Shown in pieces: positions 868 through 19,360 of a stretch of 24,000 nt of DNA. The DNA comes from Acaryochloris marina S15 (GTDB lineage: Bacteria; Cyanobacteriota; Cyanobacteriia; Thermosynechococcales; Thermosynechococcaceae): NCBI RefSeq assembly GCF_018336915.1, contig NZ_CP064923.1:4625372-4649371 (forward strand). Reading direction: 5' to 3'. Positions within the stretch are counted from its first letter, which is position 1. Every line of letters starts with the position of its first letter. The position numbers and the translations under genes were made by a program. The notes beneath the pieces are model-generated. The model was not told where the DNA came from. It did no database searches and was given only the letters and a program-made list of their open reading frames with translations.

Positions 868-1992
868 TCAACTTATAGAAGGAACAAAAGAATTTTGATT
901 AATCGTTTGAGCGGGATAAATTTGGTTAATAACTTGATGGATTTTTTGAAAGAAGACGGGTTCGGAAAAGTGTGACAGGGCATGGTTTCGAATGTATTGA
1001 TAGTCCCATTCGATCTGTTGCGATCGCACGAGTGCTGCCTGCAGAGATGAGGCTGTTTGTTTATTGAAAAACACACCCGTCTGGCCTGGAACTTGGGTAT
1101 CGAGTACACCACCCGCACCAAAAGAAACCACTGGCGTTCCGCTGGCATTTGCTTCAACGGGAACCAAACCATAATCTTCTAGGGCTGCCACGACCACTGC
1201 TTTAGCTTTGGCCATCAGATGACAGCGCTCTGCATCAGAGATATATCCTAGAAATTCGACGTTTGATTTAGCTCGACGTTCTAAATGCTCCCGTTCCGGG
1301 CCATCTCCCATAATCTTCAAAGGCCAACCCAACTGATTAAACGCATCAATAATAACGTCAACACGCTTATAGCCCAACAATCGGGCAGATACTAAGAAAA
1401 AATCTTCTTTTTGGTCCGAAAAAGAAAATTTAGAATTATCAATTGGATAGTTGACTACAATCGCTTGCTTACTATAAGTCGATTGGATACGGCCGGCGAC
1501 TTCAGTCGAATTAGCAATATATAGATCGGGCTCTTGGGCATAGGCGAGATCAGCCTTCCTCATGACCCGAAACATTTTCTCGATAAAAGGGTAGAGATGC
1601 TGATAGTCTGCATACTCTCTCAAATAGGTTTGGGTGTCCCACAGAAAACGAGTGATGTTATGGCAAAAGCAGATATGTTTTGCATCCGATCGGGTTCGCA
1701 CCGCTTTAGCAAAGCTGGTGCTACTGCTAATAATTAGGTCATATTTCTGTAAATCCAACGCTCTAAAAGCTGGATAATAGAAAGGAGCCAACAGCCTAAA
1801 ATACTTGGTTGCCCCTGGTAATTTCTGTAAAAGAGTTGTATGAACAAGTCGATCGCCCAACTCTATCGTTTGTTGTGGATCGTATAGAGAAGTGAATATA
1901 TCTGCACTGGGGAAGTGACGACACAACAGCTCGAAAACCCTCTCAGCGCCTCCGCGTTGGGTTAGATAGTCATGAACTAGGGCAATCTTCAT
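868..1992 (-). CDS. Glycosyltransferase family 4 (GT-B fold, group 1)
   Basis: 374-aa ORF with an ATG start. The N-terminus MKIALVHDYLTQRGGAERV and the C-terminal EDYGLVPVEANASGTPVV region are typical of group-1/GT4 enzymes. Its stop lies 10 nt upstream of the Wzz-like gene start, so it is probably co-transcribed with that exopolysaccharide gene. Confidence 0.85.
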   Translation of the reverse strand: MKIALVHDYLTQRGGAERVFELLCRHFPSADIFTSLYDPQQTIELGDRLVHTTLLQKLPGATKYFRLLAPFYYPAFRALDLQKYDLIISSSTSFAKAVRTRSDAKHICFCHNITRFLWDTQTYLREYADYQHLYPFIEKMFRVMRKADLAYAQEPDLYIANSTEVAGRIQSTYSKQAIVVNYPIDNSKFSFSDQKEDFFLVSARLLGYKRVDVIIDAFNQLGWPLKIMGDGPEREHLERRAKSNVEFLGYISDAERCHLMAKAKAVVVAALEDYGLVPVEANASGTPVVSFGAGGVLDTQVPGQTGVFFNKQTASSLQAALVRSQQIEWDYQYIRNHALSHFSEPVFFQKIHQVINQIYPAQTINQNSFVPSIS

Positions 1993-2450: not shown

Positions 2451-4265
2451 TTATCGATAGTTCTGAGCTTGGGTTTCAAACATCGATGCATAGACCCCAT
2501 TCAGGTTCATCAGCGTATTATGATTACCTTCTTCAATCATGTGACCTTGTGACATCACATAAATATAGTCCGCCATCTTAACTGTCGACAATCGGTGACT
2601 AATCAAAATGGCGGACTGATCTTGTATGAGCTCCCGAAACTGTTGGAAAACCTCATACTCAGCTTTGGGGTCCATTGCACTGGTTGGCTCATCCAGAACA
2701 ATCACTTGGGAATCTCGAAGAAAGGCACGAGCCAAAGCGATTTTCTGCCACTGCCCAATACTGAGTTCTTCTCCCTGATCAAACATCTTGCCTAAGACAG
2801 TATCGTACCCTTGAGGTAACGACTGGATCACTCTATCGGCCCCGGATAGTTGAGCCGCCGATCGGATTCGATGCTCATCGGCAGGTCTCTCAATATTCCC
2901 TAACTGGATATTCTCTCGGGCAGTGAAATGGTATTTAGCATAATCTTGAAAGATGACGCTGATATGGCTTTTCAGCTCAAGCTTGCTAAAGTTTTTGAGA
3001 TCAATCCCATCAATTGTGATATTCCCTTCAGTAGGATCGTAAAGCCGACAAAGTAGCTTAATTAATGTCGTTTTGCCAGAACCATTTTCACCCACTAAAG
3101 CAATGACTTGTCCTGGCTGAAGCTTGAGAGAAACATTGTGAATAGCTTGACGCTGGGTCGTTACATATTGAAAGCTCACATTATTGAAGGCAACTCCAGT
3201 GGCTAAACTCCCTGGAAAAGGCTGCGGGCATTCTGGCTCCAAAACTTTTGATTCTATATCTAAAAACTCGTATAGATTCGCAAGGAACAAATTATCCTCA
3301 TAAAGTCCAGATAGACTCCGTAACAAACCCTTCAGACTATTTTGGCCTTTTTGCAGTGCCTGATAGTAGAGAACTAAATCCCCTAATTTGAGCACTCCCA
3401 ACAAAGTTTGTTGGACCATATAGACAAAGATGGCAAATACAAACAGTCCTGCAATTACCTGGGCTCCAAAAAAGGCAAAGGATCGTTTGGAAACTATGCC
3501 TACTTTTTCTTTATAGATTATTTCCCGTAACTGGGAATATCTGTGTTTGAAATGTTCTCCTAAGTTAAATAGACGAATTTCCTTGGCAAACAAATCGCTG
3601 GTTTGTAACCACCCCAAATACATCGCCTGCCGTTCCAGCTGAGTACGACGACGCTTCCAGTGGTACATCACCCCTGCAAACTTCATCCGCACCAACACAG
3701 TCGGAATAGCAGCAACAAACAAAATCCCCACAATGCTCCAATGCAAGGCTAATAACAATCCCAACATTGCGATCAGTGAAATTGAACTTTGCCCGGCCAA
3801 GGCTAACCGATCCAGGATACGGGGAGGGCGATAGGGAGCCTCTTGTTGTGCCCGCTGCAAGGCATCATAATACTGGGCATTTTCGTAATACTCTAAGTCG
3901 GCTGAAATAGATTTAGAGTGGATAATGCCCTGCATATAATCCGTGACCCGCTGAGCATGAGCAATGGTAACCAAGTCCGATAGCGAGGCAAAGAAGGTCG
4001 TACTAATCGTCAAGCAAGCGGCAACAACCAATAAAGGAACGATATCGTTGATCGCTGATGCCCGGTTAGAGAGTGCTAAGCTAATCGTCACTTGGTCGAC
4101 AATCAGCTTAGTCATATAAATGGAAAATAAGGGTAGGATGCCCTGAATGATGACCAAGCCAATGCGCGCCAAAGTCCAGTTAGGACCGCTTTGCCAAACC
4201 AATTTCAAAGCTGGTATGAAGTGCAAGGGACGTTTGAATCTTGCTTTGATAAATCCAGTCAGCAT
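2451..4265 (-). CDS. ABC transporter, fused permease/ATPase; predicted lasso-peptide exporter/immunity protein (McjD-type role)
   Basis: 604-aa ORF with an N-terminal multi-helix permease half. Walker A is GENGSGKTT, the ABC signature is LSIGQWQKIALARAF and Walker B is VIVLDEPTS. It lies directly downstream of the precursor genes on the same strand. Confidence 0.85.
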   Translation of the reverse strand: MLTGFIKARFKRPLHFIPALKLVWQSGPNWTLARIGLVIIQGILPLFSIYMTKLIVDQVTISLALSNRASAINDIVPLLVVAACLTISTTFFASLSDLVTIAHAQRVTDYMQGIIHSKSISADLEYYENAQYYDALQRAQQEAPYRPPRILDRLALAGQSSISLIAMLGLLLALHWSIVGILFVAAIPTVLVRMKFAGVMYHWKRRRTQLERQAMYLGWLQTSDLFAKEIRLFNLGEHFKHRYSQLREIIYKEKVGIVSKRSFAFFGAQVIAGLFVFAIFVYMVQQTLLGVLKLGDLVLYYQALQKGQNSLKGLLRSLSGLYEDNLFLANLYEFLDIESKVLEPECPQPFPGSLATGVAFNNVSFQYVTTQRQAIHNVSLKLQPGQVIALVGENGSGKTTLIKLLCRLYDPTEGNITIDGIDLKNFSKLELKSHISVIFQDYAKYHFTARENIQLGNIERPADEHRIRSAAQLSGADRVIQSLPQGYDTVLGKMFDQGEELSIGQWQKIALARAFLRDSQVIVLDEPTSAMDPKAEYEVFQQFRELIQDQSAILISHRLSTVKMADYIYVMSQGHMIEEGNHNTLMNLNGVYASMFETQAQNYR

Positions 4266-4592
4266 AAACGGCCATTTGACAATGCATAGTGCAGAATTAT
4301 CCTAACGCTGTACGAACACACTCAGCGAGAGAGGTGAAAAACATGGCCAGCCCTAGTCAAAATCCTGGGTCATAGGATGGAGCTGATCTGCCAGATCGTT
4401 CACATTTCAATAATGAGGTCGAAGTCTTAGGGAGACTGCCTTACACCCCAGAGAAGCAAAGTCGTCATCCATATGGCTAAGCTGAAAAAGCCTGCATCCG
4501 AACAGCAAGGACTCATTCAGCAACACTGAAACCGTTGATCTTAAACAGGCCGTTATCGAGGAGATGCAATGTTGTGATCTGTTTTAGCTCAA

Positions 4593-4631
4593 ACAAATAG
4601 AGCCAGCATTTTGAAGGCTGACTCTGTTTGT
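4593..4631 (-). terminator. Candidate stem-loop (attenuator or mRNA-stabilising hairpin) between the precursor genes and the ABC exporter
   Basis: 4593-4607 pairs with 4617-4631: about 14 pairs, with one mismatch and one wobble on the minus-strand RNA, and a 9-nt loop. It sits 37 nt downstream of the stop of precursor copy 2. There is no clean U-tract after the stem; the U-rich run UAUUUGUUUG is partly inside it. It is therefore not a textbook intrinsic terminator. Confidence 0.3.
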
Positions 4632-4667
4632 ATCAATATTCAGTTTATAGATAACTGAAAAGGATGA

Positions 4668-4808
4668 CTATGACGTTACATCATCAATATCACCGGCAGG
4701 AATCGTCCCAAAAGGCACATCTGTCGCATTAAATGACGGTGAATTCTTAGTCATATCTTCTACGCTGCCATACACCTTCAACTGAGGTGCACCATAGGAT
4801 CTTTTCAT
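4668..4808 (-). CDS. Lasso-peptide precursor, copy 2 (46 aa): MKRSYGAPQLKVYGSVEDMTKNSPSFNATDVPFGTIPAGDIDDVTS
   Basis: Hand translation of the minus strand: ATG at 4808-4806, TAG at 4670-4668. AAGGAG (4826-4821) lies 12 nt upstream of the ATG. The leader matches YxxPxLx3Gx5Tx exactly (Y5, P8, L10, G14, T20). It sits between a lasso cyclase and an ABC exporter. A paralogous copy lies 334 bp away and differs mostly by silent substitutions. Confidence 0.8.
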   Translation of the reverse strand: MKRSYGAPQLKVYGSVEDMTKNSPSFNATDVPFGTIPAGDIDDVTS

Positions 4809-4878
4809 GGTCTTAGCTTACTCCTTACTTAATTTGTCTTTAGCTGTTCTGGCTTATGCATATGGAAGCATTTGCCAA

Positions 4879-4938
4879 TTAACAGCGTCTAATTGTTGTC
4901 AATTAGGTGTTTTACCCCCCAGGTCAGCTGTGAAACAA
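4879..4938 (-). promoter_or_regulatory. Conserved ~60-nt block upstream of precursor copy 2, containing an 18-bp palindrome (4889-4906)
   Basis: The minus-strand sequence TTGTTTCACAGCTGACCTGGGGGGTAAAACACCTAATTGACAACAATTAGACGCTGTTAA is almost identical to the block upstream of copy 1, while the flanking spacer has diverged. The palindrome is CTAATTG-ACAA-CAATTAG. Promoter elements could not be assigned with confidence; TTGTTT-18nt-TAAAAC is one possibility. Confidence 0.4.
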
Positions 4939-5001
4939 TTCAAGCTGGACCACGACGCAAACATTCTAGCAACAATCAAAAAATCGTGGCTGGGTAATAA
5001 A

Positions 5002-5142
5002 CTATGACGTTATATCATCAATATCCCCAGCAGGAATGGTTCCAAATGGCACATCGATAGCATTCACCGATGGCGCATTCTTTGTCATATCTTCTACGCT
5101 TCCGTAAGCCCTCAATTGAGGTGCATCATAAAATTTTTTCAT
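5002..5142 (-). CDS. Lasso-peptide precursor, copy 1 (46 aa): MKKFYDAPQLRAYGSVEDMTKNAPSVNAIDVPFGTIPAGDIDDITS
   Basis: Hand translation of the minus strand: ATG at 5142-5140, TAG at 5004-5002. AAGGAG (5160-5155) lies 12 nt upstream. It has the same leader motif and the same Asn1/Asp9/C-terminal Ser architecture as copy 2. Confidence 0.8.
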   Translation of the reverse strand: MKKFYDAPQLRAYGSVEDMTKNAPSVNAIDVPFGTIPAGDIDDITS

Positions 5143-5215
5143 GGCCTTAGCTTGCTCCTTAAGTCATCTGCTTTTAGCAGCTGTTCTGGTTTACTTATAT
5201 GAGTTGCCATACAAG

Positions 5216-5274
5216 TTAACAGCGTCTAATTAAAGTTAATTAGGTGTTTACCCCCCAGGTCAGCTGTGAAACAA
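5216..5274 (-). promoter_or_regulatory. Conserved block upstream of precursor copy 1, containing an 18-bp palindrome (5226-5243)
   Basis: The minus-strand sequence is TTGTTTCACAGCTGACCTGGGGGGTAAACACCTAATTAACTTTAATTAGACGCTGTTAA. The palindrome is CTAATTA-ACTT-TAATTAG. Relative to copy 2, the innermost arm pair changed G:C to A:T on both arms, so the symmetry is preserved by a compensatory change. Confidence 0.4.
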
Positions 5275-5432
5275 GTTTCTAGCCGGACCATGATGCCGCT
5301 ATTTTAGGCAGTATCCAGTGGAAAATCTTGCCGAGTGGACATCAATTCAGCATACAAATCCAGTTTAGACATTATAGCTTTTAAAATATATGGGGAGAAT
5401 CTCAATCCTTAAATATTCATAAGATTTGATTA

Positions 5433-7406
5433 CTATTGCGTGGATTCTGCAAAATTGGAGCTTAGATTAGCTTGTTGTAGCCAAAGAATCAAGTTAACGG
5501 CAATCCAAATCAGTAAAGTGTCGTTAGCTTCAGCATGTCCTGTGTGCCATCGATTGACTAGGTTAGTCAGCTCTTGCATATCAATAAAGTCTGCAATGGC
5601 ATCAGGAGGATGACTGAGGACCTGGTGGATCAAGTCCGTACCGTATTTCTCTAGGGTATGGTCAAACGCTGTGCCCAAATTTCCTTTCCCTGCGCGCCAC
5701 TGAATTTGGGGAGGAAGAATACCTTCGAGTCCACGTCTGATAATCAACCGAGTCCAACCATTTTGCATCTTCTGCTCCTCTGGTAGAGAGACACAAAATT
5801 CTACTAACCGCTTATCCCAAAAGGGAAATCGCAATTCAATTTGGGATGCGGCGGCTGTTCGATCCATCACTTCTAGGGTCGAAGAGACTAAGCCAGACGT
5901 AACATCAACGATATGTTCATGACGTTGAGATGGTTGTGCGCCAAAGCGCTGACGACGCAACTGTTTATAGCGCTGTAGCACTGATGCCCGATCGATAAAG
6001 TCTGGGCTAAGGGGAATGGCCCAAGGCATTGCTGGAGCTGCCTGTGATGCACTAGGGTCTTGCTGTCCACGAGATTGCCAAGTGTTGACTTTACGAATAA
6101 TTTTGGTGATCTTTGTCTTCTTGAGGAGGGGGTTGATGCCAAATTTACGGACATAGGACCGATACAGTGGCCATAAGTCGTAACCGAAGCTTTGACAAAA
6201 CCCGCTCATCTCGCGCCATAACTTGAGCCAATGTCCCGCTTTGGCAAGGGTGCGCAAATACCCTACTCCATGGGATACCGCCTGATCACCATCAAAGCCA
6301 TCCAATAACACCCGGACGGATTGGCCCTGAGCGATTTGATATAAGGCATGGGTTAAGTGGGAGTTACAGGCAAATAAGGGTTCGTCTTGAAGGGCCAACA
6401 TCTGCTGATAATCTGTCCAGGGTCCGAGTTGATCTCCCTGTACATACTGAGGCTCGATAGGCCGCTGATGAACCACTGCATTAATGAATTCCTGTTCATC
6501 AGATGCCGTTATTTCATTAAACACGGCAGAGAAGGTGGGGAATTTAGCGGTCTCTTGTGCCTCCTGTCTCAACTGGGCAGTCATACAGGTGATGGAGGAG
6601 GAGTCAATGCCACCACTTAACATCGTGCCCACGGGAAATGCACTTCTGAGGCGACAGCGCACTGCTTCGGTAAAAATAGCTTGAAACTGTTCAGCATAGG
6701 CTTGATCGGACTCAAGCTGTAGTTCAACGTCAGGATCGAGAGACCAGTAGGATGAGATGTCCAGATTGTTTTTGCTCACCGTCATCCGGTGAGCAGGAGG
6801 AAGTCGCAGGATCTGCTCATAGAAGGTCATTTCTGAATCAAACAACATGAGGGTCAGATAGTCGGCGACTCTGGTTTCATTTAAGGCTTTAGGCACTTCT
6901 GGCAGGTGAAACAGCGCTTTCATTTCGCTTGCAAAGGCAAACACCTGTTCAGAGGCATAGTAAAAGAAAGGCTTGACCCCAAAATGATCGCGGGCACAAA
7001 ACAAATGCTGTTGAGTGGCATCCCAGAGGGCAAAGGCAAAGTCACCCAGGAGAAATTCAGGACATTGTTCACCCCATTTTTCGTAGGCAGCAAGAATGAG
7101 AGCGCTATCGGTAATAACTTCGGATGTAGGCTGTTCCAGGCCCAACTGGGTCATCAGATCAGCACGATTATCAATCCGCGCGTCGGCAGTGAGGACTAAG
7201 GTTTGGGAGGCATTGCTGAGAGGAGGCGTTTCAAACCGGGATTCTGGGGTTGTCTGTAATAAACAATGGCCGAGGCCAACCTGATCTTGACTCCATATAT
7301 TTGTCCCATCCGGTCCCCGATGGGACAGAGATTGGACCATTTGATGCAGATGATCAATCCCCCCAGGATGAGGGTGAGGATAAACAAAGCCAGTAATTGC
7401 GCTCAT
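5433..7406 (-). CDS. Lasso-peptide cyclase (asparagine synthetase B-like, McjC-type)
   Basis: 657-aa ORF. The PP-loop ATP-pyrophosphatase motif is MLSGGIDSSSIT. The N-terminus is MSAITGF rather than the MCGI of true AsnB, so the glutaminase Cys nucleophile is absent, as is typical of lasso cyclases. The gene is flanked by other lasso genes. Confidence 0.9.
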   Translation of the reverse strand: MSAITGFVYPHPHPGGIDHLHQMVQSLSHRGPDGTNIWSQDQVGLGHCLLQTTPESRFETPPLSNASQTLVLTADARIDNRADLMTQLGLEQPTSEVITDSALILAAYEKWGEQCPEFLLGDFAFALWDATQQHLFCARDHFGVKPFFYYASEQVFAFASEMKALFHLPEVPKALNETRVADYLTLMLFDSEMTFYEQILRLPPAHRMTVSKNNLDISSYWSLDPDVELQLESDQAYAEQFQAIFTEAVRCRLRSAFPVGTMLSGGIDSSSITCMTAQLRQEAQETAKFPTFSAVFNEITASDEQEFINAVVHQRPIEPQYVQGDQLGPWTDYQQMLALQDEPLFACNSHLTHALYQIAQGQSVRVLLDGFDGDQAVSHGVGYLRTLAKAGHWLKLWREMSGFCQSFGYDLWPLYRSYVRKFGINPLLKKTKITKIIRKVNTWQSRGQQDPSASQAAPAMPWAIPLSPDFIDRASVLQRYKQLRRQRFGAQPSQRHEHIVDVTSGLVSSTLEVMDRTAAASQIELRFPFWDKRLVEFCVSLPEEQKMQNGWTRLIIRRGLEGILPPQIQWRAGKGNLGTAFDHTLEKYGTDLIHQVLSHPPDAIADFIDMQELTNLVNRWHTGHAEANDTLLIWIAVNLILWLQQANLSSNFAESTQ

Positions 7407-7426
7407 GATGACAGAAGGGTCGAAAT

Positions 7427-8644
7427 TTAGGAATGAGAAGTGGGTTCAATCTCTTTAATCATGAGAAATCCCTCTTGAATCAAGTTCTGAGTTAAGGACA
7501 ATCTGCCAGCATCATTAATCAAACCACCAATATCTTTTATGGCCAGACAGGAATGGTCGATCAGATCGGTCAGGGAAGCCGCTAGAAAGATAGGAAAGGT
7601 TAGGCTTTTTTGATAGAAGTTCAAAATAATTTGGGTTGAACTTCTATCAACTGAAAATAGGATATTGGGCCTACGGGCAACGACAGAATCGAGATTGAGC
7701 TGTGGCAGATGGATCAGGTCTTGGAAGCGGCCTTGGTCTTCTGATTTGCGATCGCACAAAAATACCCCATTCTTCCGCTCCACCAATTCTTTGGTCTTCA
7801 CCCTATTCATTAAGGACTGGCTCAGGGTTTGAAACGATTCATCAAAAGCCTGCTGTTGCTCAGAACTGGAAAAACCGTGGGGAATCGCTTTCCGAAAGGC
7901 CGGGTCAGCCTGGGCAATGGTGACCAACTCCTCCAAGAGTTCGTAAGCAAAGGTGGGATATAACCCTAGGGATGCGTGGACTGAAGTGGTTTCTTGACTG
8001 GCCGCTTGATGGACCACACCCCGAGGAATATAGAGCAAATCACCAGGCTGGAGCATTACCGTTAACTCTGGCTCAGCCAGTTCATGGCGGCCAATACTTT
8101 GATCTCTGATGTGAGAGGGTAGCTCAACGGGGGAATGGTAGAGTTTCCATTCTTTCTCCCCGGTGATTTGGAGAATAAACACATCATGTTCGTCGTAATG
8201 AGGTGCTAAACCCTGGGCTTGGGGGGGCGTGATGTAGATATTGGTTCGGAGCTTAAACTTCAGCTCGCATTCTAGGGCACTACAAAAGTGTCGCAGCTTG
8301 GGAATTTTCTTGTGGGCCCCGTTGATGGTCAAGGTTAAGCCCTGGTGCAACAAGCTATACAGCTTGTCATTGTCAATAAAATATTGTTGGGATTTAGAGT
8401 GGCGTTCGCACCAGTCTTCCAGACTTAGCTTATTGCCCTGATCCACTAGGCGGAAGTTATTGTAATCCGCCAACAAAGCTTTGTTTTGCAGCAGTAGATC
8501 GATGTCGCCTGGATCTAGGACCGACCCATAAAAAAAGGCATCATTCCTGGGCAAATGAAGCGTTTTTGCTTCCCAATAGGTCTGGAAAAAATCTTCAATC
8601 GTGCAGGGAGCGATTAAACGGGCAAACTGAGACTCAACCTTCAT
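7427..8644 (-). CDS. JmjC/cupin-4 family Fe(II)/2-oxoglutarate oxygenase (RoxA/YcfD-like peptide or protein hydroxylase)
   Basis: The facial-triad context is GLAPHYDEHDVFILQITGEKEWKLY (HxD), LLYIPRGVVHQA, and the distal His in TSVHASLG. The track starts the ORF at a TTG (8665). I prefer the ATG at 8644-8642, which overlaps the kinase stop (CATGAAGGTTGA) by 11 nt. Confidence 0.75.
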   Translation of the reverse strand: MKVESQFARLIAPCTIEDFFQTYWEAKTLHLPRNDAFFYGSVLDPGDIDLLLQNKALLADYNNFRLVDQGNKLSLEDWCERHSKSQQYFIDNDKLYSLLHQGLTLTINGAHKKIPKLRHFCSALECELKFKLRTNIYITPPQAQGLAPHYDEHDVFILQITGEKEWKLYHSPVELPSHIRDQSIGRHELAEPELTVMLQPGDLLYIPRGVVHQAASQETTSVHASLGLYPTFAYELLEELVTIAQADPAFRKAIPHGFSSSEQQQAFDESFQTLSQSLMNRVKTKELVERKNGVFLCDRKSEDQGRFQDLIHLPQLNLDSVVARRPNILFSVDRSSTQIILNFYQKSLTFPIFLAASLTDLIDHSCLAIKDIGGLINDAGRLSLTQNLIQEGFLMIKEIEPTSHS

Positions 8645-9539
8645 GGGCCAGGATGTGATTTTCAACTAGGGTAGCAATGTCCGGCAGTAAATCTAAGGAA
8701 GCTGGTCGTAGAAGACGCAAGAGAGGCACCTGTTGAGCCAGTATCATCAGTTGCTTAAAATGGCTGGCCCCTCGCTCCTGCAATAAAGTTTGCTCAAAGC
8801 GGGTGACATAGGAGTTTTGCATCAAATGTTGAATAATCTCCTGGGGCGGCAACGGCTTAATGGCGACTTCGTCTCCTTGCCCCAGCACAAAAATATATCT
8901 AAGAGGCAGAATGTCAGCCATAAAGCCCGAAGAGAGCTGATGATTCCGTTTTTCTAAGCGGGCACCTAATCGCGGCAAATCTTCGGGTTGCTTGCCAATG
9001 CAAGCGACGGCATCTGGCCACAGCTTAATTTGAGGAAAGGCAGGTTGCACCTGAATTTGATGACGTTGGATTTCCAGGGCCACCACATCATCCGCAATTA
9101 AGCTATGGCCTCGATCATGCAAGGTAGCTGCCATCGTGGATTTGCCCCACCGTTTTTGACCGATAAAGGCCACGGCTTCGCCTTCTAAGGCCACAGCGCT
9201 GGCATGGAGGACCAAAAATCCTCGTTGGTGCAATACGACCCCCATCACCGCGCCTAGAATAAACAGGCGAAGGCGATCCTCATCCAGATCGATCTCTAAA
9301 TCAATCAGGACATCTTGCCCTTCCTGAATCAAAAACGTCCCCACTCCCTGCCAATATAAATACATCCCCGCATCTGTATTTTGATAGCAATGCAGGGTGT
9401 TTTCGGTTTGCAAAGGACTATCGGTAATGGCACCAAAATGAATCCAAACATCCGCATCAGTTGCCAGGGTAGAGATCAGTTCTGGCAGTTGAATTTCAGA
9501 CTGTAGGGTCAAGCCATAGGCTGAGTAAAAGTGGGACAT
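8634..9539 (-). CDS. HPr kinase/phosphorylase-like protein; predicted lasso-precursor Ser kinase (paeninodin PadeK-type)
   Basis: 301-aa ORF. Walker A sits in the HprK-like context LHASAVALEGEAVAFIGQKRWGKSTMAATL. The gene is embedded in a lasso operon whose precursors end in Ser. Confidence 0.7.
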   Translation of the reverse strand: MSHFYSAYGLTLQSEIQLPELISTLATDADVWIHFGAITDSPLQTENTLHCYQNTDAGMYLYWQGVGTFLIQEGQDVLIDLEIDLDEDRLRLFILGAVMGVVLHQRGFLVLHASAVALEGEAVAFIGQKRWGKSTMAATLHDRGHSLIADDVVALEIQRHQIQVQPAFPQIKLWPDAVACIGKQPEDLPRLGARLEKRNHQLSSGFMADILPLRYIFVLGQGDEVAIKPLPPQEIIQHLMQNSYVTRFEQTLLQERGASHFKQLMILAQQVPLLRLLRPASLDLLPDIATLVENHILAHEG

Positions 9540-9672
9540 GGCAATTGCGGTTATCCAGACTCAAAGAATAACGTTTTTAGGCGATTTTTGCCTTAAGCAA
9601 TCAGGGTTAGATATTTGAGAAAGATAAAGTAGAGCCTGGAGAATCAATCCTGCAGATATAGACCGCCAATCC

Positions 9673-10602
9673 CTACCGTGGGTCCATAGGCAGGATTTTC
9701 TTGAGGTTGGACTTGAGTTTTTTCAGGAACGGTTGAGCGGATTTAGGGGAGTTGGCAGTAAACAGCTCATAGATTAACTGTTCGAATAGCGGATTGGGCA
9801 CCATGGGGTCTGGGTGAATCATGGCATCTAGGTCCAAATTAAAGGTCGGCAACTCATTCAGACCTTGGTTTCCTTGGGTATGACTGCCTTGAGTACCAAT
9901 ATTAGAAACCAGATTGACCTTGGGCACCACGGTAAGACCATTCTGGGCAAGACAAGAATAAAACCACGGAATATCCCAAACTTGTTGGTTTTGATAAGCC
10001 CAGTCAAATAATTGGGTAACCCAATCTGCTAGGGCTGGCTGCGGAAAAAATTGGGCCTGTCGATACTGAGGCCAGCCCGTCATTTTGAGGTCGTAGCATT
10101 GCCAAGCCCTGCGCCAAGAGGCCCATCCCCAAGACACAAAAAATTTAGAAAACACATAGGTCTGGGGAATCGGTAAGGTATCTCCCAGAAAATTACTGCC
10201 GGAGATAGTCATCACTTGAGATAGATGACGGTACTGGGCCAACATGGCTTGGCAAAAAGGGAAAAAACTGGGATGGGGAAGACAATCATCTTCTAAAATG
10301 ATCGCTTCTTCCACCTGAGAGAACACCCAATCCAACCCCTGGGCATTGCAACACCGCCCCCCAAGATTCGAGTCTGAAAAATGGGTGAGCACCTCGCACT
10401 CCCAATCCACTTGATCGACAATGGCTCTAGCTTGCTGGCATAATTTTTGGTCCTCTGGAACATCAGCTCTCGGGCCATCTGCAACGATTAACAAAGCTTG
10501 TGGTTTGGCCTGGGCAATCGCGGCAAACACCTGACTGGAATATTGAGGGCGATTGAAAATATGAAACGCAACGGGAGTGGAAAGGGGCATCAGGAGTGCC
10601 AT
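9673..10602 (-). CDS. GT-A-fold glycosyltransferase (GnT-I/GT13-like, 'HlpA-like' family)
   Basis: 309-aa ORF. The N-terminus is VAFHIFNRPQYSSQVFAAIAQAKPQALLIVADGPR. The acidic motif ILEDDCLPHPSFFPF resembles the EDDLEVAPDFF motif of GnT-I. No sulfotransferase PAPS-binding motifs were seen. The assignment rests on remembered family signatures only. Confidence 0.55.
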   Translation of the reverse strand: MALLMPLSTPVAFHIFNRPQYSSQVFAAIAQAKPQALLIVADGPRADVPEDQKLCQQARAIVDQVDWECEVLTHFSDSNLGGRCCNAQGLDWVFSQVEEAIILEDDCLPHPSFFPFCQAMLAQYRHLSQVMTISGSNFLGDTLPIPQTYVFSKFFVSWGWASWRRAWQCYDLKMTGWPQYRQAQFFPQPALADWVTQLFDWAYQNQQVWDIPWFYSCLAQNGLTVVPKVNLVSNIGTQGSHTQGNQGLNELPTFNLDLDAMIHPDPMVPNPLFEQLIYELFTANSPKSAQPFLKKLKSNLKKILPMDPR

Positions 10603-10620
10603 GGAAGAAGAAGCGGAATT

Positions 10621-11229
10621 TCAGACAAACCAGCTGACAATCGAGAAGCGCTCACCATAGGTGACCGGTTTAACTTCATGCCAGAGATCGGATCGAAACG
10701 CAATCAGTTGACCTTGTTCAGGCTCCAGAGGGAAGCCATAGTTTTGACCGCGAGCATCATCAAGTAATCCATAGAGGGCTAAGGCTCCGCCCCCAAAGGT
10801 CTGAGGACTAGGCTCAGCGGACATACTGTTGAGGAAAATAATTAAAGACACCAGTCGATTTTTTTCAAACTTAGAGCCCGGTAGGCTCGGATCGATGACA
10901 TCTCGATGAAGGCCAAAAAAGTCGCCCACTTGATAGCGATAGCAGGAGGGGGGTTCTAAGTCCTGGAGTTGGACCTGGAAATGGGTTTCTAATCGCGGCT
11001 TAATAGCAATTAAGCGCTCACGAATGCTCTGGGCCGTGGTTTGACTTATTTGCAACTGGCCCGTTTTTCGTCGACTATTGTCGGTCACAGCCTCACCATA
11101 TCTTGTGAGGCGAGCGGGCTCACAGGGGCAGGTCTGTGCTTCCGTGAGGTAGGACTCACAAAATTGTGGATCTAAAAAGCCGGGGTCAACAAATACCCCC
11201 AAGCGTTCAAAAAAAGCAGCGCTAGGCAT
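10621..11229 (-). CDS. 2OG-Fe(II) oxygenase, prolyl 4-hydroxylase-like
   Basis: 202-aa ORF. HxD is in DFFGLHRDVIDP. The distal His and the 2OG-binding Arg are in LIAFRSDLWHEVKPVTYGERFSIVSWF. It ends 18 nt upstream of the GT-A gene. Confidence 0.8.
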   Translation of the reverse strand: MPSAAFFERLGVFVDPGFLDPQFCESYLTEAQTCPCEPARLTRYGEAVTDNSRRKTGQLQISQTTAQSIRERLIAIKPRLETHFQVQLQDLEPPSCYRYQVGDFFGLHRDVIDPSLPGSKFEKNRLVSLIIFLNSMSAEPSPQTFGGGALALYGLLDDARGQNYGFPLEPEQGQLIAFRSDLWHEVKPVTYGERFSIVSWFV

Positions 11230-11299
11230 TGCTCCGAACCTTTTATTCAGCGATGGAAAAATATTTAATATTCTAGATCAAGTCCTCAGAAGATGAGGC

Positions 11300-11758
11300 T
11301 TAGATCTTGGAATCAAATGATGGCATTGGTGTAAAGCGGGATAAGTCATTCACAAAGCCCATGATCACTTGCCCTTGCAACTCAACCCAGGCATGGGCTT
11401 CTAGAGAATGGTCTTCTGCTTTAGCAACCCCAATTTTTAGCTCGGGTTCATAGCCTCGCCGACAAATTAACACTTGAGTGACGAGGGCTCGAGCTAAACA
11501 TTTCACCTTTCCTGGCATAAAGCGGCTGCTGGTGTTCACTGCCCAGACCACTTTACCTACGGTCCTACGACTAATCTTAGTCAGGGTAGGCGATTGATAG
11601 TAAGCAGACGTTTGGTGAAAGTTGACCAGCCATTTTTGCAGGATTTTGAAGGGTAGCAACCACAACCCCAATCGAACCAAGCCCAAGAGAACGTAGGTTT
11701 TGATCAGGAGGGTGCGATCGCAACTTCGCAACCGCAAAAATTTAAGCACTGGCGACAT
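11300..11758 (-). CDS. Lasso-peptide leader protease B2 (transglutaminase-like cysteine protease)
   Basis: KCLARALVTQVLICRRGYEPELKIGVAKAEDHSLEAHAWVELQG carries the Cys and His (AHAWVE) signature of lasso B2 proteins. The track ORF starts at a TTG (11770). The ATG at 11758 is more likely, and either start overlaps the end of B1. Confidence 0.85.
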   Translation of the reverse strand: MSPVLKFLRLRSCDRTLLIKTYVLLGLVRLGLWLLPFKILQKWLVNFHQTSAYYQSPTLTKISRRTVGKVVWAVNTSSRFMPGKVKCLARALVTQVLICRRGYEPELKIGVAKAEDHSLEAHAWVELQGQVIMGFVNDLSRFTPMPSFDSKI

Positions 11759-12047
11759 CTTTGATCTCAATCAATTCCGATTCAGCCATCTCATTTAGCA
11801 ACCTCATGACATCTTGTTCACACTGGTCCGACCCAACTTCGTATTGATCTAAAATTTGGTCGCAGATATCTTTAACCGATCGAGGTTGCTGAAGTAAATT
11901 CCAAACACTTGCACCCACTTCATTCAAACCGAAGTACATTCCTGTCTTCAGGTTGAGGATAACTGATTCCCCGGCTAAGTCAGATGAGACTTGCTCTGGG
12001 GTCGCAACAACCGTTGTATTCGTTGAAATAGTGGTAGTCAAACTCAT
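11742..12047 (-). CDS. PqqD-family RiPP recognition element (lasso B1)
   Basis: 101-aa ORF. DLAGESVILNLKTGMYFGLNEVGASVWNLLQQPRSVKDICDQILDQYEV...DVMRLLNEMAESELI follows the PqqD pattern (GE.vll....g.yf.LN..g..iW.ll), and the gene overlaps B2. Confidence 0.85.
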   Translation of the reverse strand: MSLTTTISTNTTVVATPEQVSSDLAGESVILNLKTGMYFGLNEVGASVWNLLQQPRSVKDICDQILDQYEVGSDQCEQDVMRLLNEMAESELIEIKDVASA

Positions 12048-12236
12048 AACCCTTTAAAACAATCTAATATAATGCAGATTTCGTTTAAGTTAGCACAGAT
12101 ATTTTATATTTATCCGTAGGAATTAAAACATTTAACCATTAGCTTTACAGGGATTGTCGACTCATTTTTCGCCAGACAACTTTGACCCATTTTATGCCGT
12201 GTTGACGATGCCGCTGACAGACTGTATTTCCGCTGC

Positions 12237-14713: not shown

Positions 14714-15613
14714 TTAGATAGAAGCATAGAGCTGCTCTGCCAGGATAGAGATCTCATCTTCCATCGTTAGTAACTCTAGCCAATGGCTAGGTATACCCTG
14801 CACACCATAAAAAGCACCTGCCAATTGACCACAAATAGCAGCCGTAGTATCAGCATCATCCCCAAGATTGGTTGCTTGCAGAACCGCCTGTGCAAAAGTT
14901 TCTGTGGTCCAGAAACACCAAAGAGCCGCTTCTAGACTATCTACGACATAGCCAGAACCTCGAATATCTTCCAATGTTTTGCTTTGATAATCTCCCTTGG
15001 CTATAGCTTGTATCGAAGGAGAAATTATACCTGCTGGTTCTTGCTCCATAAGGATTTCAACTTTGCCAACTCCTGATAAGGCGCGAAAGAGCATATCACC
15101 AAATAATTGGCTGGCCTCAATACATTCTGTAGCCCCATGAGTGGTACGCGAACTTTCACCACATAGATACAAGGTGCGATCGCGATCTGGGTAGCAGAAC
15201 ATAGGTACTGGGGCCAATCGCATCAAACACCCATTCCCAGCTGATCTAGGGTGAGTAGAGCCACTGAAAAGGATATCTGTAGTCTTGTATTGCTCTAAAG
15301 CTTGCCTAACAGTATTTCCAATATCGAAACAGTCACCTGTACTGCTGAGATAGCCTTTTTCATACCAATCACAGTAGCGATTCATCTGATCTGCCGCGTC
15401 AAATTTACCTTTTTGAATCAGGCTAGTGGCAAGACATAAGGCCATTGAGGTATCGTCCGTCCATTGTCCTGGTTGCAGATGAAACGGACCGCCGCCCACC
15501 ATATCGGTGACGGGGGCAAAGGTTCCTCGCGGCTGAAACTCTACCGTTGTCCCAACGGCATCACCGACTGCCAACCCCAGTAAACATCCTCTGAATCGTT
15601 CGGATATATCCAT
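14714..15613 (-). CDS. ADP-ribosylglycohydrolase family protein (ARH/DraG-like)
   Basis: 299-aa ORF. The N-terminal RFRGCLLGLAVGDAVGTTVEF and the C-terminal LGDDADTTAAICGQLAGAFYG are the two metal-binding signature regions of the ARH family. Confidence 0.85.
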   Translation of the reverse strand: MDISERFRGCLLGLAVGDAVGTTVEFQPRGTFAPVTDMVGGGPFHLQPGQWTDDTSMALCLATSLIQKGKFDAADQMNRYCDWYEKGYLSSTGDCFDIGNTVRQALEQYKTTDILFSGSTHPRSAGNGCLMRLAPVPMFCYPDRDRTLYLCGESSRTTHGATECIEASQLFGDMLFRALSGVGKVEILMEQEPAGIISPSIQAIAKGDYQSKTLEDIRGSGYVVDSLEAALWCFWTTETFAQAVLQATNLGDDADTTAAICGQLAGAFYGVQGIPSHWLELLTMEDEISILAEQLYASI

Positions 15614-15787: not shown

Positions 15788-15861
15788 GGGCTTGTAGCTC
15801 AGTGGACTAGAGCACGTGGCTTCGGACCACGGTGTCGGGGGTTCGAATCCCTCCTGGCCCG
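15788..15861 (+). tRNA. tRNA-Arg, anticodon UCG
   Basis: Hand-folded cloverleaf: acceptor GGGCTTG/CTGGCCC, D arm GCTC-AGTGGACTA-GAGC, anticodon arm CGTGG-CTTCGGA-CCACG, variable GTGTC, T arm GGGGG-TTCGAAT-CCCTC, discriminator G. No CCA is encoded. The acceptor stem has one G-U pair and a U6-U67 mismatch. Confidence 0.85.
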
Positions 15862-17969: not shown

Positions 17970-19360
17970 CCAACCATAGCTAAAAGCTTGGTTGGTGGTG
18001 TAGCGGAGTGTGACTGAAAGAAACAACCCTTCGGCAAAGCTCAGGAGCCTAAGTGCAGTATCTACACAGTAAATAGTATTATGTAGGCATGCTTAACATG
18101 ACCTGGGAATTCAAACTAGAACCCACTCCTGAGCAAGTTATAGAGATTGAACACACCTTAACGGTGTGTCGAAAAGTCTGGAACTTTGCTTTGCGTGAGC
18201 GTAAGGACTGGCTTAATTCTCGTAAATGCTCAGTGAATGCTTGTTCTCTTAGGCATGAGTACATCATGTCAGGTGATGAGCCATTTCCTAGTTATCACCT
18301 TCAAGCCAAACGTTTAACCCTTGCTAAGAAAAAGATTGCCGAACTCAAAAGCGTCAATGCTCAAATGCTTCAGCAAGTCTTGAGACAACTGGATGCATCC
18401 TGGGAGCGTTGGCTGACCAAGCAGTCGGGTCTACCTAGATTCAAAAACCAAGCTCGAATGCGAAGCTTTGTATTTCCTCAGATGCTCAAGCATCCTCTCA
18501 GTGTAAGAGGCATCAAGCTTCCGCAACTGGGCTGGGTCAAAGTGAGATGGTCTAGAGATATACCCCAGATATGCGAAGTCAAACAAGCTCGTATTGTCCG
18601 TAAGGCGTCGGGGTACTTTGTCATGTTGAGTTTACAGGCTGATGTGGATATTCCAGAGGTGCCCTTTCATGGCCATCCGGTGGGAGTTGATGTGGGATTG
18701 GAATACTTTCTATCTACTTCAGATGGCTTACAGATCAAACATCCTCGCTTTTTTAATGAGTTGCACCGCAAGCTGAAATTGCTGCAACGTAGACTCAAGA
18801 CCAAGCAAAAAGGGAGTACTAACCGGTCCAAACTGCTGAGGAAGATCGCCAGAGCTCATCAACGGATTGCCGACACTCGTAAGGACTGGCATTTCAAGAC
18901 CGCCCATCAGCTTTGTGACCAAGGAGATTCCATCTTCGTTGAAGACTTGGATTTCCGCATAATGGCGAAAGGGTTTTTGGGTAAACACACATTAGATGCT
19001 GGCCTTGGGCAATTCACTAACCAGATCCTTCCTTGGGTGTGCTGGAAGCGTGATGTTCATTATGGCAAGGTTGATCCAAGAGGAACTAGCCAGGAGTGTC
19101 CAGATTGTGGAGCAACGGTGAAAAAGGATTTGAGTGTCAGGATGTCTCACTGTTTAGAGTGCGGCTCAATTAAGCCGAGAGATATTGCGGCAGCTCAAGT
19201 GATTTGTACCCGTGGGCAACGGGGAATAGAAAATGCCTGTGGAGTCGAGGTGACGGGGGGTTCAGTAATGAATTCTAGTCAACTGGCTTTGAAGCAGGAA
19301 ATCTTTGGAGCGATCTAAAGAATCTCCTTGCATACCCGATAGGGCTGCTGGGAGAGGATG
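17970..19360 (+). mobile_element. Solo-tnpB IS200/IS605-type element (approximate extent; ends not resolved)
   Basis: tnpB is wedged between the glgC promoter region and the 3' end of the convergent acyltransferase gene. A strong hairpin at 17970-17995 could be the left-end structure. The right end must lie within about 40 nt after the tnpB stop, because the next gene ends at 19361. The boundaries are inferred, not demonstrated. Confidence 0.35.
18098..19318 (+). CDS. tnpB: TnpB (IS200/IS605-family OrfB; RuvC-type RNA-guided endonuclease)
   Basis: The N-terminus is MTWEFKLEPTPEQ. The RuvC triad contexts are VGVDVGLEYF (D), SIFVEDLDFRIM (E) and RDIAAAQVI (D). The zinc finger is CPDCG...HCLECG. 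The track starts 9 nt earlier, at ATG 18089. No tnpA is present in the window. Confidence 0.9.
   Translation: MTWEFKLEPTPEQVIEIEHTLTVCRKVWNFALRERKDWLNSRKCSVNACSLRHEYIMSGDEPFPSYHLQAKRLTLAKKKIAELKSVNAQMLQQVLRQLDASWERWLTKQSGLPRFKNQARMRSFVFPQMLKHPLSVRGIKLPQLGWVKVRWSRDIPQICEVKQARIVRKASGYFVMLSLQADVDIPEVPFHGHPVGVDVGLEYFLSTSDGLQIKHPRFFNELHRKLKLLQRRLKTKQKGSTNRSKLLRKIARAHQRIADTRKDWHFKTAHQLCDQGDSIFVEDLDFRIMAKGFLGKHTLDAGLGQFTNQILPWVCWKRDVHYGKVDPRGTSQECPDCGATVKKDLSVRMSHCLECGSIKPRDIAAAQVICTRGQRGIENACGVEVTGGSVMNSSQLALKQEIFGAI

Follow-up and report, generated by a model that had tools for sequence, protein, structure and literature searches.

Two tandem genes for putative lasso-peptide precursors in a JmjC- and HprK-containing cluster of Acaryochloris marina S15

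The proteobacterial caulonodin and xanthomonin clusters, which have a fused B protein and another leader type, carry at least two tandem related precursor genes that are served by one enzyme set and give rise to several congeners. Here we describe two tandem genes for 46-residue peptides, A1 and A2, on the minus strand of a 24,000-nt stretch of the Acaryochloris marina S15 genome (contig NZ_CP064923.1, positions 4,625,372 to 4,649,371; hereafter the window), which, judged by their sequence and setting, are very probably lasso-peptide precursors. The tandem arrangement is common to this locus and to the caulonodin and xanthomonin clusters; here the precursors lie downstream of the cyclase gene C, and a conserved 5′ block precedes each of them.

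Paeninodin and pseudomycoidin, from Firmicutes, share with the window separate B1 and B2 proteins, an HprK-family kinase, a precursor that ends in Ser, a ring closed by Asp (predicted in the window), an ATP-binding cassette (ABC) exporter and an encoded sugar-adding function (PMC6993621), and HprK homologues phosphorylate the C-terminal Ser of both precursors (PMC6993621, PMC10368454). The window differs from these systems in leader and core family, the PadeA model NF033524 giving no match to A1 or A2; in core position 1, which is Ala there and Asn here; in two additional oxygenases; in a recognisable GT-A fold, where the known system has the nucleotidyltransferase PsmN; and in that phosphorylation is here a prediction. 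Within Cyanobacteria, which have been called an underexplored lasso source (PMC7533575), a putative lasso cluster of Stanieria cyanosphaera PCC 7437 comprises a cyclase, a precursor, a PsmK-like kinase and a recognisable glycosyltransferase, and reportedly lacks B proteins (Zyubko et al. 2019, PMC6993621). Compared by description, that cluster and the window are alike in cyclase, precursor, kinase and glycosyltransferase, whereas the window has B1 and B2. The solved lasso structures in a 2025 survey come from three other phyla only, none of them cyanobacterial (PMC12214591), and the literature that could be searched reports no isolated cyanobacterial lasso peptide and no characterised product of the peptide family treated here.

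That family is the bioinformatically curated NCBIfam family NF033528 (lasso_cyano), of which we found no characterised member. The A1 and A2 leaders align to it at E~1e-7, and members above its cut-off (such as the metagenomic peptide P0047 and a pair from Calothrix sp. NIES-4071) share with A1 and A2 the DVPxGT core segment, the C-terminal ITS or VTS, and JmjC and HprK neighbours. In contrast, the Acaryochloris core starts with Asn rather than the Gln or Ala common elsewhere and has an acidic DIDD(I/V)TS tail, and the Acaryochloris cluster adds a 2-oxoglutarate (2OG) oxygenase and a GT-A transferase. Much of the locus is already known: the genes are called in GenBank, one orthologue is labelled as a lasso peptide, curated models assign names to C, B1 and B2, and the leader falls in a curated family. 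Genome mining, likewise, routinely turns up complete clusters with tandem lasso precursors. Modestly new are the Asn-1 start, the acidic DIDD(I/V)TS tail, the four-enzyme tailoring set and the conserved 5′ block.

Putative precursor genes and maturation cluster

A1 (5142-5002, minus strand) and A2 (4808-4668, minus strand) are 141-nt open reading frames (ORFs) that encode the 46-residue peptides MKKFYDAPQLRAYGSVEDMTKNAPSVNAIDVPFGTIPAGDIDDITS and MKRSYGAPQLKVYGSVEDMTKNSPSFNATDVPFGTIPAGDIDDVTS, respectively. A Shine-Dalgarno sequence, AAGGAG, can be read 12 nt before each ATG on the same strand (5160-5155 for A1 and 4826-4821 for A2), and AGGAG is unvaried across 10 aligned precursor upstream regions. 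The coordinates, translations and start signals given in a preliminary description of this stretch were all reproduced. That description called the two genes unannotated, which held for the length-filtered ORF track it used but not for the public databases, where both exact sequences are coding sequences in GenBank and RefSeq. Specifically, A1 is identical to QUY41699/WP_212662896.1 and A2 to QUY41698/WP_212662895.1, both encoded on a 5.88-Mb Acaryochloris marina chromosome and both labelled 'hypothetical protein', because the two peptides score below the trusted cut-off of NF033528. The orthologues in strain MBIC11017 are ABW26932 and ABW26931, and the latter, the orthologue of A2, bears the UniRef name 'Lasso peptide'. 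A Pfam search with the A1 and A2 peptides gave no matches. The plus-strand ORF of 66 residues in the same region (4807-5007) is spurious, as previously proposed: in MBIC11017 it is frameshifted by 4-nt and 6-nt indels and interrupted by stop codons.

Each peptide divides into a predicted leader of 21 residues (MKKFYDAPQLRAYGSVEDMTK in A1, MKRSYGAPQLKVYGSVEDMTK in A2) and a predicted core of 25 residues starting at Asn22 (NAPSVNAIDVPFGTIPAGDIDDITS in A1, NSPSFNATDVPFGTIPAGDIDDVTS in A2). Ring sizes of 7, 8 and 9 are permitted in lasso peptides, and Asp30, as core residue 9, would give an allowed ring. Published lasso leaders have YxxPxL at -17 to -12 and Thr at -2 (PMC10368454, PMC6784204); with a 21-residue leader, Tyr5, Pro8, Leu10 and Thr20 of both peptides are positioned at -17, -14, -12 and -2, an exact fit. 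The leader motif pointed out earlier (Y5, P8, L10, G14, T20) has its exact spacing in both peptides, and it is exclusive to them in the window: the pattern Y..P.L...G.....T. occurs twice in the six-frame translation, in A1 and in A2, against a mean of 0.025 in shuffled windows. Among 13 distinct homologous peptides, the leader residues M1, Y5, P8, L10, Y13, G14, V16, E17, D18, T20 and K21 and the core residues N22, D30, V31, P32, G34, D40, D42, D43, T45 and S46 are invariant, which extends to the homologues the constancy of the motif residues, Asn22, Asp30 and the terminal Thr-Ser that had been noted between the two copies.

The leader/core rule was tested on 41 short peptides from an exhaustive profile search, anchored on an aromatic-xxPx[LVI] motif. 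Thr occupies position -2 in 40 of the 41. A conserved D(V/I)P segment is borne by 35 of them, and in all 35 its Asp is residue 7, 8 or 9 of the core (1, 10 and 24 peptides, respectively). This pattern across the family provides independent support for the predicted cleavage site and for the predicted ring-forming residue. A C-terminal Ser, corresponding to Ser46, is present in 32 of the 41.

A1 and A2 are located between C and D in a compact cluster of 10 genes, all on the minus strand, with B1 most upstream and D most downstream. B1 (12047-11742), a PqqD-type recognition element for ribosomally synthesised, post-translationally modified peptides (RiPPs), scores 83.9 bits on NF033536 (cut-off 80), and B2 (11770-11300), a transglutaminase-like leader peptidase, scores 119.7 bits on NF033537 (cut-off 33). 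The asparagine synthetase-like lasso cyclase C (7406-5433) reaches 892 bits on NF033535 (cut-off 525), matches PF00733 and has the PP-loop SGGIDS; the first precursor gene begins 291 nt downstream of it. In every locus, the gene for the ABC exporter D (4265-2451 in the window; PF00005) is the next one downstream of the precursor.

Four candidate tailoring enzymes are encoded between B2 and C. The first is a 2OG-Fe(II) oxygenase (11229-10621; PF13640) with an HxD...H...R motif. The second is a 309-residue protein (10602-9673) that has no match in Pfam or in a sequence search of the PDB. Its AlphaFold (AF2) model, built with 40 homologues, has a pLDDT of 90, and Foldseek matches it to 5ggi and 1fo8 at E~1e-10; by this model the protein is a GT-A fold glycosyltransferase closest to POMGnT1 and GnT-I, and it has an invariant EDD motif. 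The third is an HprK-like peptide kinase (9539-8634) with a PDB match to Hpr kinase at E=9e-5, which keeps H112, G127, G132, K133, S134, D150 and D151, seven of the eight motif residues of the lasso kinase BsfK (PMC10368454). The fourth is a JmjC/cupin-4 oxygenase (8665-7427; PF08007) with an HxD...H motif, which in PDB comparison resembles the ribosomal oxygenases MINA53, NO66 and YcfD. The listed TTG start of the JmjC gene gives 412 residues and a 32-nt overlap with the kinase gene; since homologues are 405 residues long, translation probably starts at the ATG at 8644, which gives 405 residues.

Divergence, selection and orthologous loci

A recount of the differences between A1 and A2 gave 26 of 141 nt in 21 codons, 12 of them with synonymous and 9 with replacement changes, identical to the earlier hand alignment. 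The changes are distributed 3/6/17 over codon positions 1/2/3. By the Nei-Gojobori method, the proportions of synonymous and non-synonymous differences are pS=0.54 and pN=0.089, with a ratio of non-synonymous to synonymous divergence (dN/dS) of 0.10 (Fisher's exact test on synonymous versus non-synonymous sites, p=7e-7). The ratio is also low within each paralogue lineage. Between the window strain and MBIC11017, a comparison that the preliminary description had proposed as a check, A1 has 16.5 synonymous and 4.5 non-synonymous differences (dN/dS 0.04) and A2 has 8 and 3 (dN/dS 0.09), while pS in the flanking genes is 0.18-0.49. The earlier claim of purifying selection on both copies is therefore upheld. 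Across ten precursor coding sequences, the variable columns fall 18/18/38 on the three codon positions, and pairwise dN/dS among orthologues with unsaturated dS is 0.03-0.22, with one exception: for the closely related pair L008 and L009 it is 0.80, with the differences clustered in the core. Core-concentrated differences are typical of RiPPs.

These values bear on the possibility that only one copy is a working precursor and that the other is a redundant duplicate in decay, or serves mere gene dosage. The two genes arose by a tandem duplication with a period of ~334-337 nt that took in ~170 nt of upstream sequence, and both the restriction of this duplication of ~334 nt to one lineage and the sufficiency of a single precursor in more distant Acaryochloris lineages would fit such a history. 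However, the start codon, the Shine-Dalgarno sequence, all motif residues and a conserved upstream block of its own are kept in each copy, and the changes since duplication are mostly silent in both. Furthermore, the cores of A1 and A2 differ at four of 25 positions (A2S, V5F, I8T and I23V), and the paralogue-specific residues Ala/Ser2, Ile/Thr8 and Ile/Val23 are the same in the window strain and in MBIC11017, arguing that two genes are maintained as distinct products rather than one of them decaying. We consider a single working copy unlikely and, from the sequence comparisons, regard A1 and A2 with high confidence as two functional paralogous precursor genes of a lasso-peptide cluster.

Orthologous loci were reached through exact-protein look-ups. 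The close homologues that a word-indexed search found are, where named, from Acaryochloris only. A scan of a genome collection with the cyclase matched only MBIC11017 and, as an unrelated hit, Chitinophagaceae. The window and MBIC11017 (L001) have the full cluster with A1 and A2. The gene order is B1-B2-K-JmjC-C-A-D in the IP29b bin (L003/L004; K, kinase), K-JmjC-C-A-D in L005/L006, and 2OG-GT-K-JmjC-C-A-D in L007, where an in-frame 6-nt insertion lengthens the precursor to 48 residues; three shorter contigs (L008, L009 and L011) have one precursor copy each. In all 8 Acaryochloris lineages recovered, the precursor ORF is intact between C and D, the opposite of an unrelated small ORF at this site with these frames disrupted, the outcome that the preliminary description had set against its own proposal. 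The pair of 2OG oxygenase and GT-A transferase genes (9673-11229, minus strand) behaves as an accessory module that the window, MBIC11017 and L007 have; in the IP29b lineage, which is without it, the kinase gene follows B2 directly.

The wider family and a proposed pathway

The profile search places the Acaryochloris peptides in a wider family. The leader, a (T)DVPxGT segment that follows the predicted ring Asp, and (I/V)TS or Ser at the C-terminus recur in many metagenomic peptides of 43-65 residues, several of which pass the NF033528 cut-off. One of them, P0047, scores 43 bits and is encoded in a metagenomic locus that has a cyclase gene before it and JmjC, HprK and PCMT-like methyltransferase genes after it. 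Homologues of the JmjC protein with 40-52% identity occur in Calothrix, Nostoc, Chlorogloeopsis, Scytonematopsis and Dapis. In Calothrix sp. NIES-4071 (L015, AP018290.1, 4274-14128), B1, B2 and C are followed by two tandem precursor genes and then by genes for JmjC, HprK, methyltransferase, ABC and NTP_transf_5 proteins. The two Calothrix precursors have 50 residues each, MNT[NS]KKAY[AT]APSLTVHGSVGTITQ followed by QGGPPIRVDVPFGTPLGDNGITDVTS; they are near-identical, with identical cores. An analogous locus in Dapis has two ORFs of 82 residues with a similar leader and long, unrelated cores. Judged from these sequences, tandem precursors together with a JmjC/HprK module are a recurrent cyanobacterial lasso architecture, of which the Acaryochloris genes appear to be a divergent branch. 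A PCMT-like O-methyltransferase and a PsmN-like NTP_transf_5 protein adjoin JmjC and HprK in clusters of the same family (L015, L013 and L016). One long multi-repeat match to the profile, P0044, with the motif NPQLKSCGSIEG every ~25 residues, was rejected and read as a translated tandem DNA repeat, possibly an array of clustered regularly interspaced short palindromic repeats (CRISPR).

From the reading frames and cluster composition observed and the conservation, purifying selection, motif spacing and terminator computed, we infer every chemical step of the following pathway as well as the threaded topology. Each gene would yield a 46-residue peptide with a 21-residue leader and a 25-residue core, and, going by established lasso biochemistry, the YxxPxL leader would be bound by B1. 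The HprK-like kinase would most likely phosphorylate the C-terminal Ser, which is invariant, while the precursor still has its leader, in the manner of PadeK and PsmK (PMC6993621, PMC10368454); by this analogy, C-terminal phosphorylation is rather likely. B2 would cut after Lys21, with Thr(-2) as recognition residue, and C would activate the side chain of Asp9 and join it to the alpha-amine of Asn1, giving a 9-residue macrolactam with the 16-residue tail threaded through it. The residue spacing makes this Asn1-Asp9 ring quite probable. The JmjC and 2OG oxygenases might hydroxylate side chains, with the conserved Asp, Pro, Val or Asn as candidates, and the GT-A transferase might attach a sugar, the analogies being pseudomycoidin, whose phosphate is hexosylated, and the glycosyltransferase of the Stanieria cluster (PMC6993621); we put hydroxylation and glycosylation of the peptide each at somewhat less than an even chance. 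The ABC transporter D would export both congeners, two of which the cluster should make, as the cores differ in sequence.

The identification of A1 and A2 as lasso precursors draws on several lines that agree: the cyclase, B1, B2 and exporter context, the leader match, the canonical spacing, the selection and the intact orthologues. Other observations weigh against it. A1 and A2 score 32.0 bits (E=8.6e-8) and 31.3 bits (E=1.5e-7) on NF033528, 1-2 bits short of its trusted cut-off of 33 bits, and the alignment covers model positions 1-21 of 35, that is, the leader, with the core unaligned. Core position 1 is an invariant Asn in the 13 homologues in place of a small residue, typically Gly; Ala, Ser and Cys are also expected there in characterised lasso peptides. 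Across the 41 family peptides this position is Asn in 17 and Gln in 11, together 28, and Gly in only 3; Gly at position 1 is a common mining criterion, albeit a heuristic rather than a strict requirement (PMC7533575). The tail is poor in bulky residues for locking a 9-membered ring (Phe12 and Ile15/20/23). The kinase falls below the cut-offs of both models that detect it (PF07475, E=6e-7, below gathering; TIGR04352, E=1.6e-8), and BsfK phosphorylates Ser3 and not the C-terminus (PMC10368454), the target residue here being a prediction. L007 (Logan SRR17348485_564, 3860-12150) has no B1 or B2 within 10 kb upstream. Finally, the searchable literature has no mention of AM1_1913 to AM1_1916 or of the accessions, and text that names both Acaryochloris and lasso peptide does not treat this cluster.

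Some of these observations would also suit genuine RiPP precursors whose end product is not a threaded lasso but, for example, a linear or branched-cyclic phospho- or hydroxy-peptide made mainly by the kinase and the oxygenases. JmjC and HprK are the most constant partners of the peptide family, B1 and B2 are not found near L007, Asn1 is atypical and plug residues are few. However, a cyclase gene stands immediately upstream of the precursor in every locus, the window cyclase exceeds the cut-off of the lasso-cyclase model by far, and an Asp at position 7-9 in every family peptide that has the segment is a lasso ring constraint. The B1 and B2 of L007 could be encoded elsewhere in its genome, and the locus recalls the Stanieria cluster and the B-independent synthesis of pseudomycoidin, a precedent for lasso formation without B proteins (PMC6993621). 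A non-lasso product is accordingly given a very small probability, and we retain the lasso-precursor reading.

A broader proposal is tentative and, in our estimate, rather doubtful. The Acaryochloris peptides may belong to an uncharacterised, widespread and mostly cyanobacterial lasso subclass that would be defined by a ring from Asn/Gln-1 to Asp-8/9, DVPxGT closely following that ring, Ser at the C-terminus, and obligatory JmjC and HprK. In this subclass the ribosomal-oxygenase-like JmjC protein would hydroxylate the peptide, a phospho(-glyco)sylated C-terminus, and not bulky side chains, would lock the tail in the 9-membered ring, and the ~165-nt 5′ block described below would be a cis-acting RNA element for mRNA stability or translation. 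If so, JmjC-type hydroxylation would be a lasso tailoring step hitherto undescribed.

Whatever the fate of that proposal, the locus supplies two definite cores, each with a predicted cleavage site and a predicted ring residue, and its cluster could be a candidate for heterologous expression. The main gain would be to learn how a single scaffold of 25 residues is tailored by two oxygenases (JmjC and 2OG), a kinase and a GT-A transferase, and how the cyclase accepts Asn at the N-terminus. For annotation, the lesson is that the NF033528 cut-off loses real family members by 1-2 bits.

Upstream blocks, terminator and genomic surroundings

Upstream of each precursor gene, on the minus strand, lies a conserved block of ~165 nt. 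The A1 block (5143-5310) comprises a -10-like TAAAAT (5306-5301), a GGTCCGGC..GCTGACC hairpin, a G6 run and the palindrome CTAATTAA..TTAATTAG. The A2 block (4809-4971) comprises an extended -10-like TGCTAGAAT (4971-4963), a GGTCCAGC..GCTGACC hairpin, the hairpin CTAATTG-ACAA-CAATTAG (4906-4889) and a GCTGTT/AACAGC stem. The G6 run, the GCTGTT/AACAGC long-range stem and the invariant AGGAG are elements of the blocks, and the A1 and A2 versions of the CTAATTG-N4-CAATTAG hairpin are set apart by a compensatory change, A-T to G-C, with G-U pairs in other strains. A run of 28 nt is 100% identical between the blocks (4911-4938 and 5247-5274). Overall identity between the blocks is 76%; the values for third codon positions and for fourfold-degenerate sites are 63% and 41%, respectively, and the excess over the latter indicates that the block is under selection. 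In front of each precursor copy there is thus a separate conserved block, which contains a promoter-like element and whose function is putative.

Folding of the upstream blocks (RNAalifold and single-sequence) gives three hairpins; the z-score is -2.9 for the A2 block and -1.2 for the A1 block. Covariation in the blocks is no higher than in shuffled controls, 52-57 of 500 shuffles reaching the observed values, which leaves the RNA structure of the 5′ block unproven. At the gathering threshold, Rfam has no family in the intergenic blocks and finds only a tRNA elsewhere in the window; the one snoRNA match of a permissive scan, at 26 bits against a gathering threshold of 65, was set aside as chance. 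That the ORFs are untranslated and conserved as a duplicated non-coding RNA or regulatory element would accommodate the conservation of the flanking non-coding sequence, including the 28 identical nt, but is highly improbable in view of the third-position bias and dN/dS of 0.1 between the copies, the frame kept intact in all lineages with an insertion in L007 that preserves it, the match to a curated peptide hidden Markov model (NF033528) and the lack of any Rfam family.

Downstream of A2, an intrinsic-terminator-like hairpin, CAAACAGAGTCAGCC..GCTGGCTCTATTTGTTTG (4590-4630, minus strand), was found by comparative folding. A strong hairpin, AAACATAGAG...CTCTATGTTTTTT, follows the last or sole precursor in all 8 lineages, and of the 14 pairs that RNAalifold predicts from the eight, 6 show compensatory double changes. 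No such hairpin follows A1, whose 3′ flank passes straight into the A2 upstream block, so that a single terminator after A2 divides the precursors from the exporter gene. A simple promoter and terminator scan missed both the conserved -10-like box and the terminator, the latter because its loop is 9 nt long.

Immediately downstream of the ABC exporter, a GT4 glycosyltransferase gene (868-1992, minus strand) starts a polysaccharide-type cluster with Wzz/tyrosine-kinase, Polysacc_synt, pyruvyl transferase and methyltransferase genes. This cluster is syntenic in all Acaryochloris lineages examined and is probably unrelated to the lasso cluster, although it is always adjacent. On the other side, ~6 kb upstream of the lasso cluster, is a gene for an IS605-family OrfB/TnpB-type transposase (18089-19318, plus strand) with HTH_OrfB_IS605, OrfB_IS605 and Cas12f1-like TNB domains. 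An ADP-ribosylglycohydrolase gene (14714-15613, minus strand) and the tRNA gene (15788-15861, plus strand; Rfam, 61 bits) sit between the cluster side and genes for a tRNA-methyltransferase (PF02390) and a glucose-1-phosphate adenylyltransferase-like protein, an ordinary housekeeping context.

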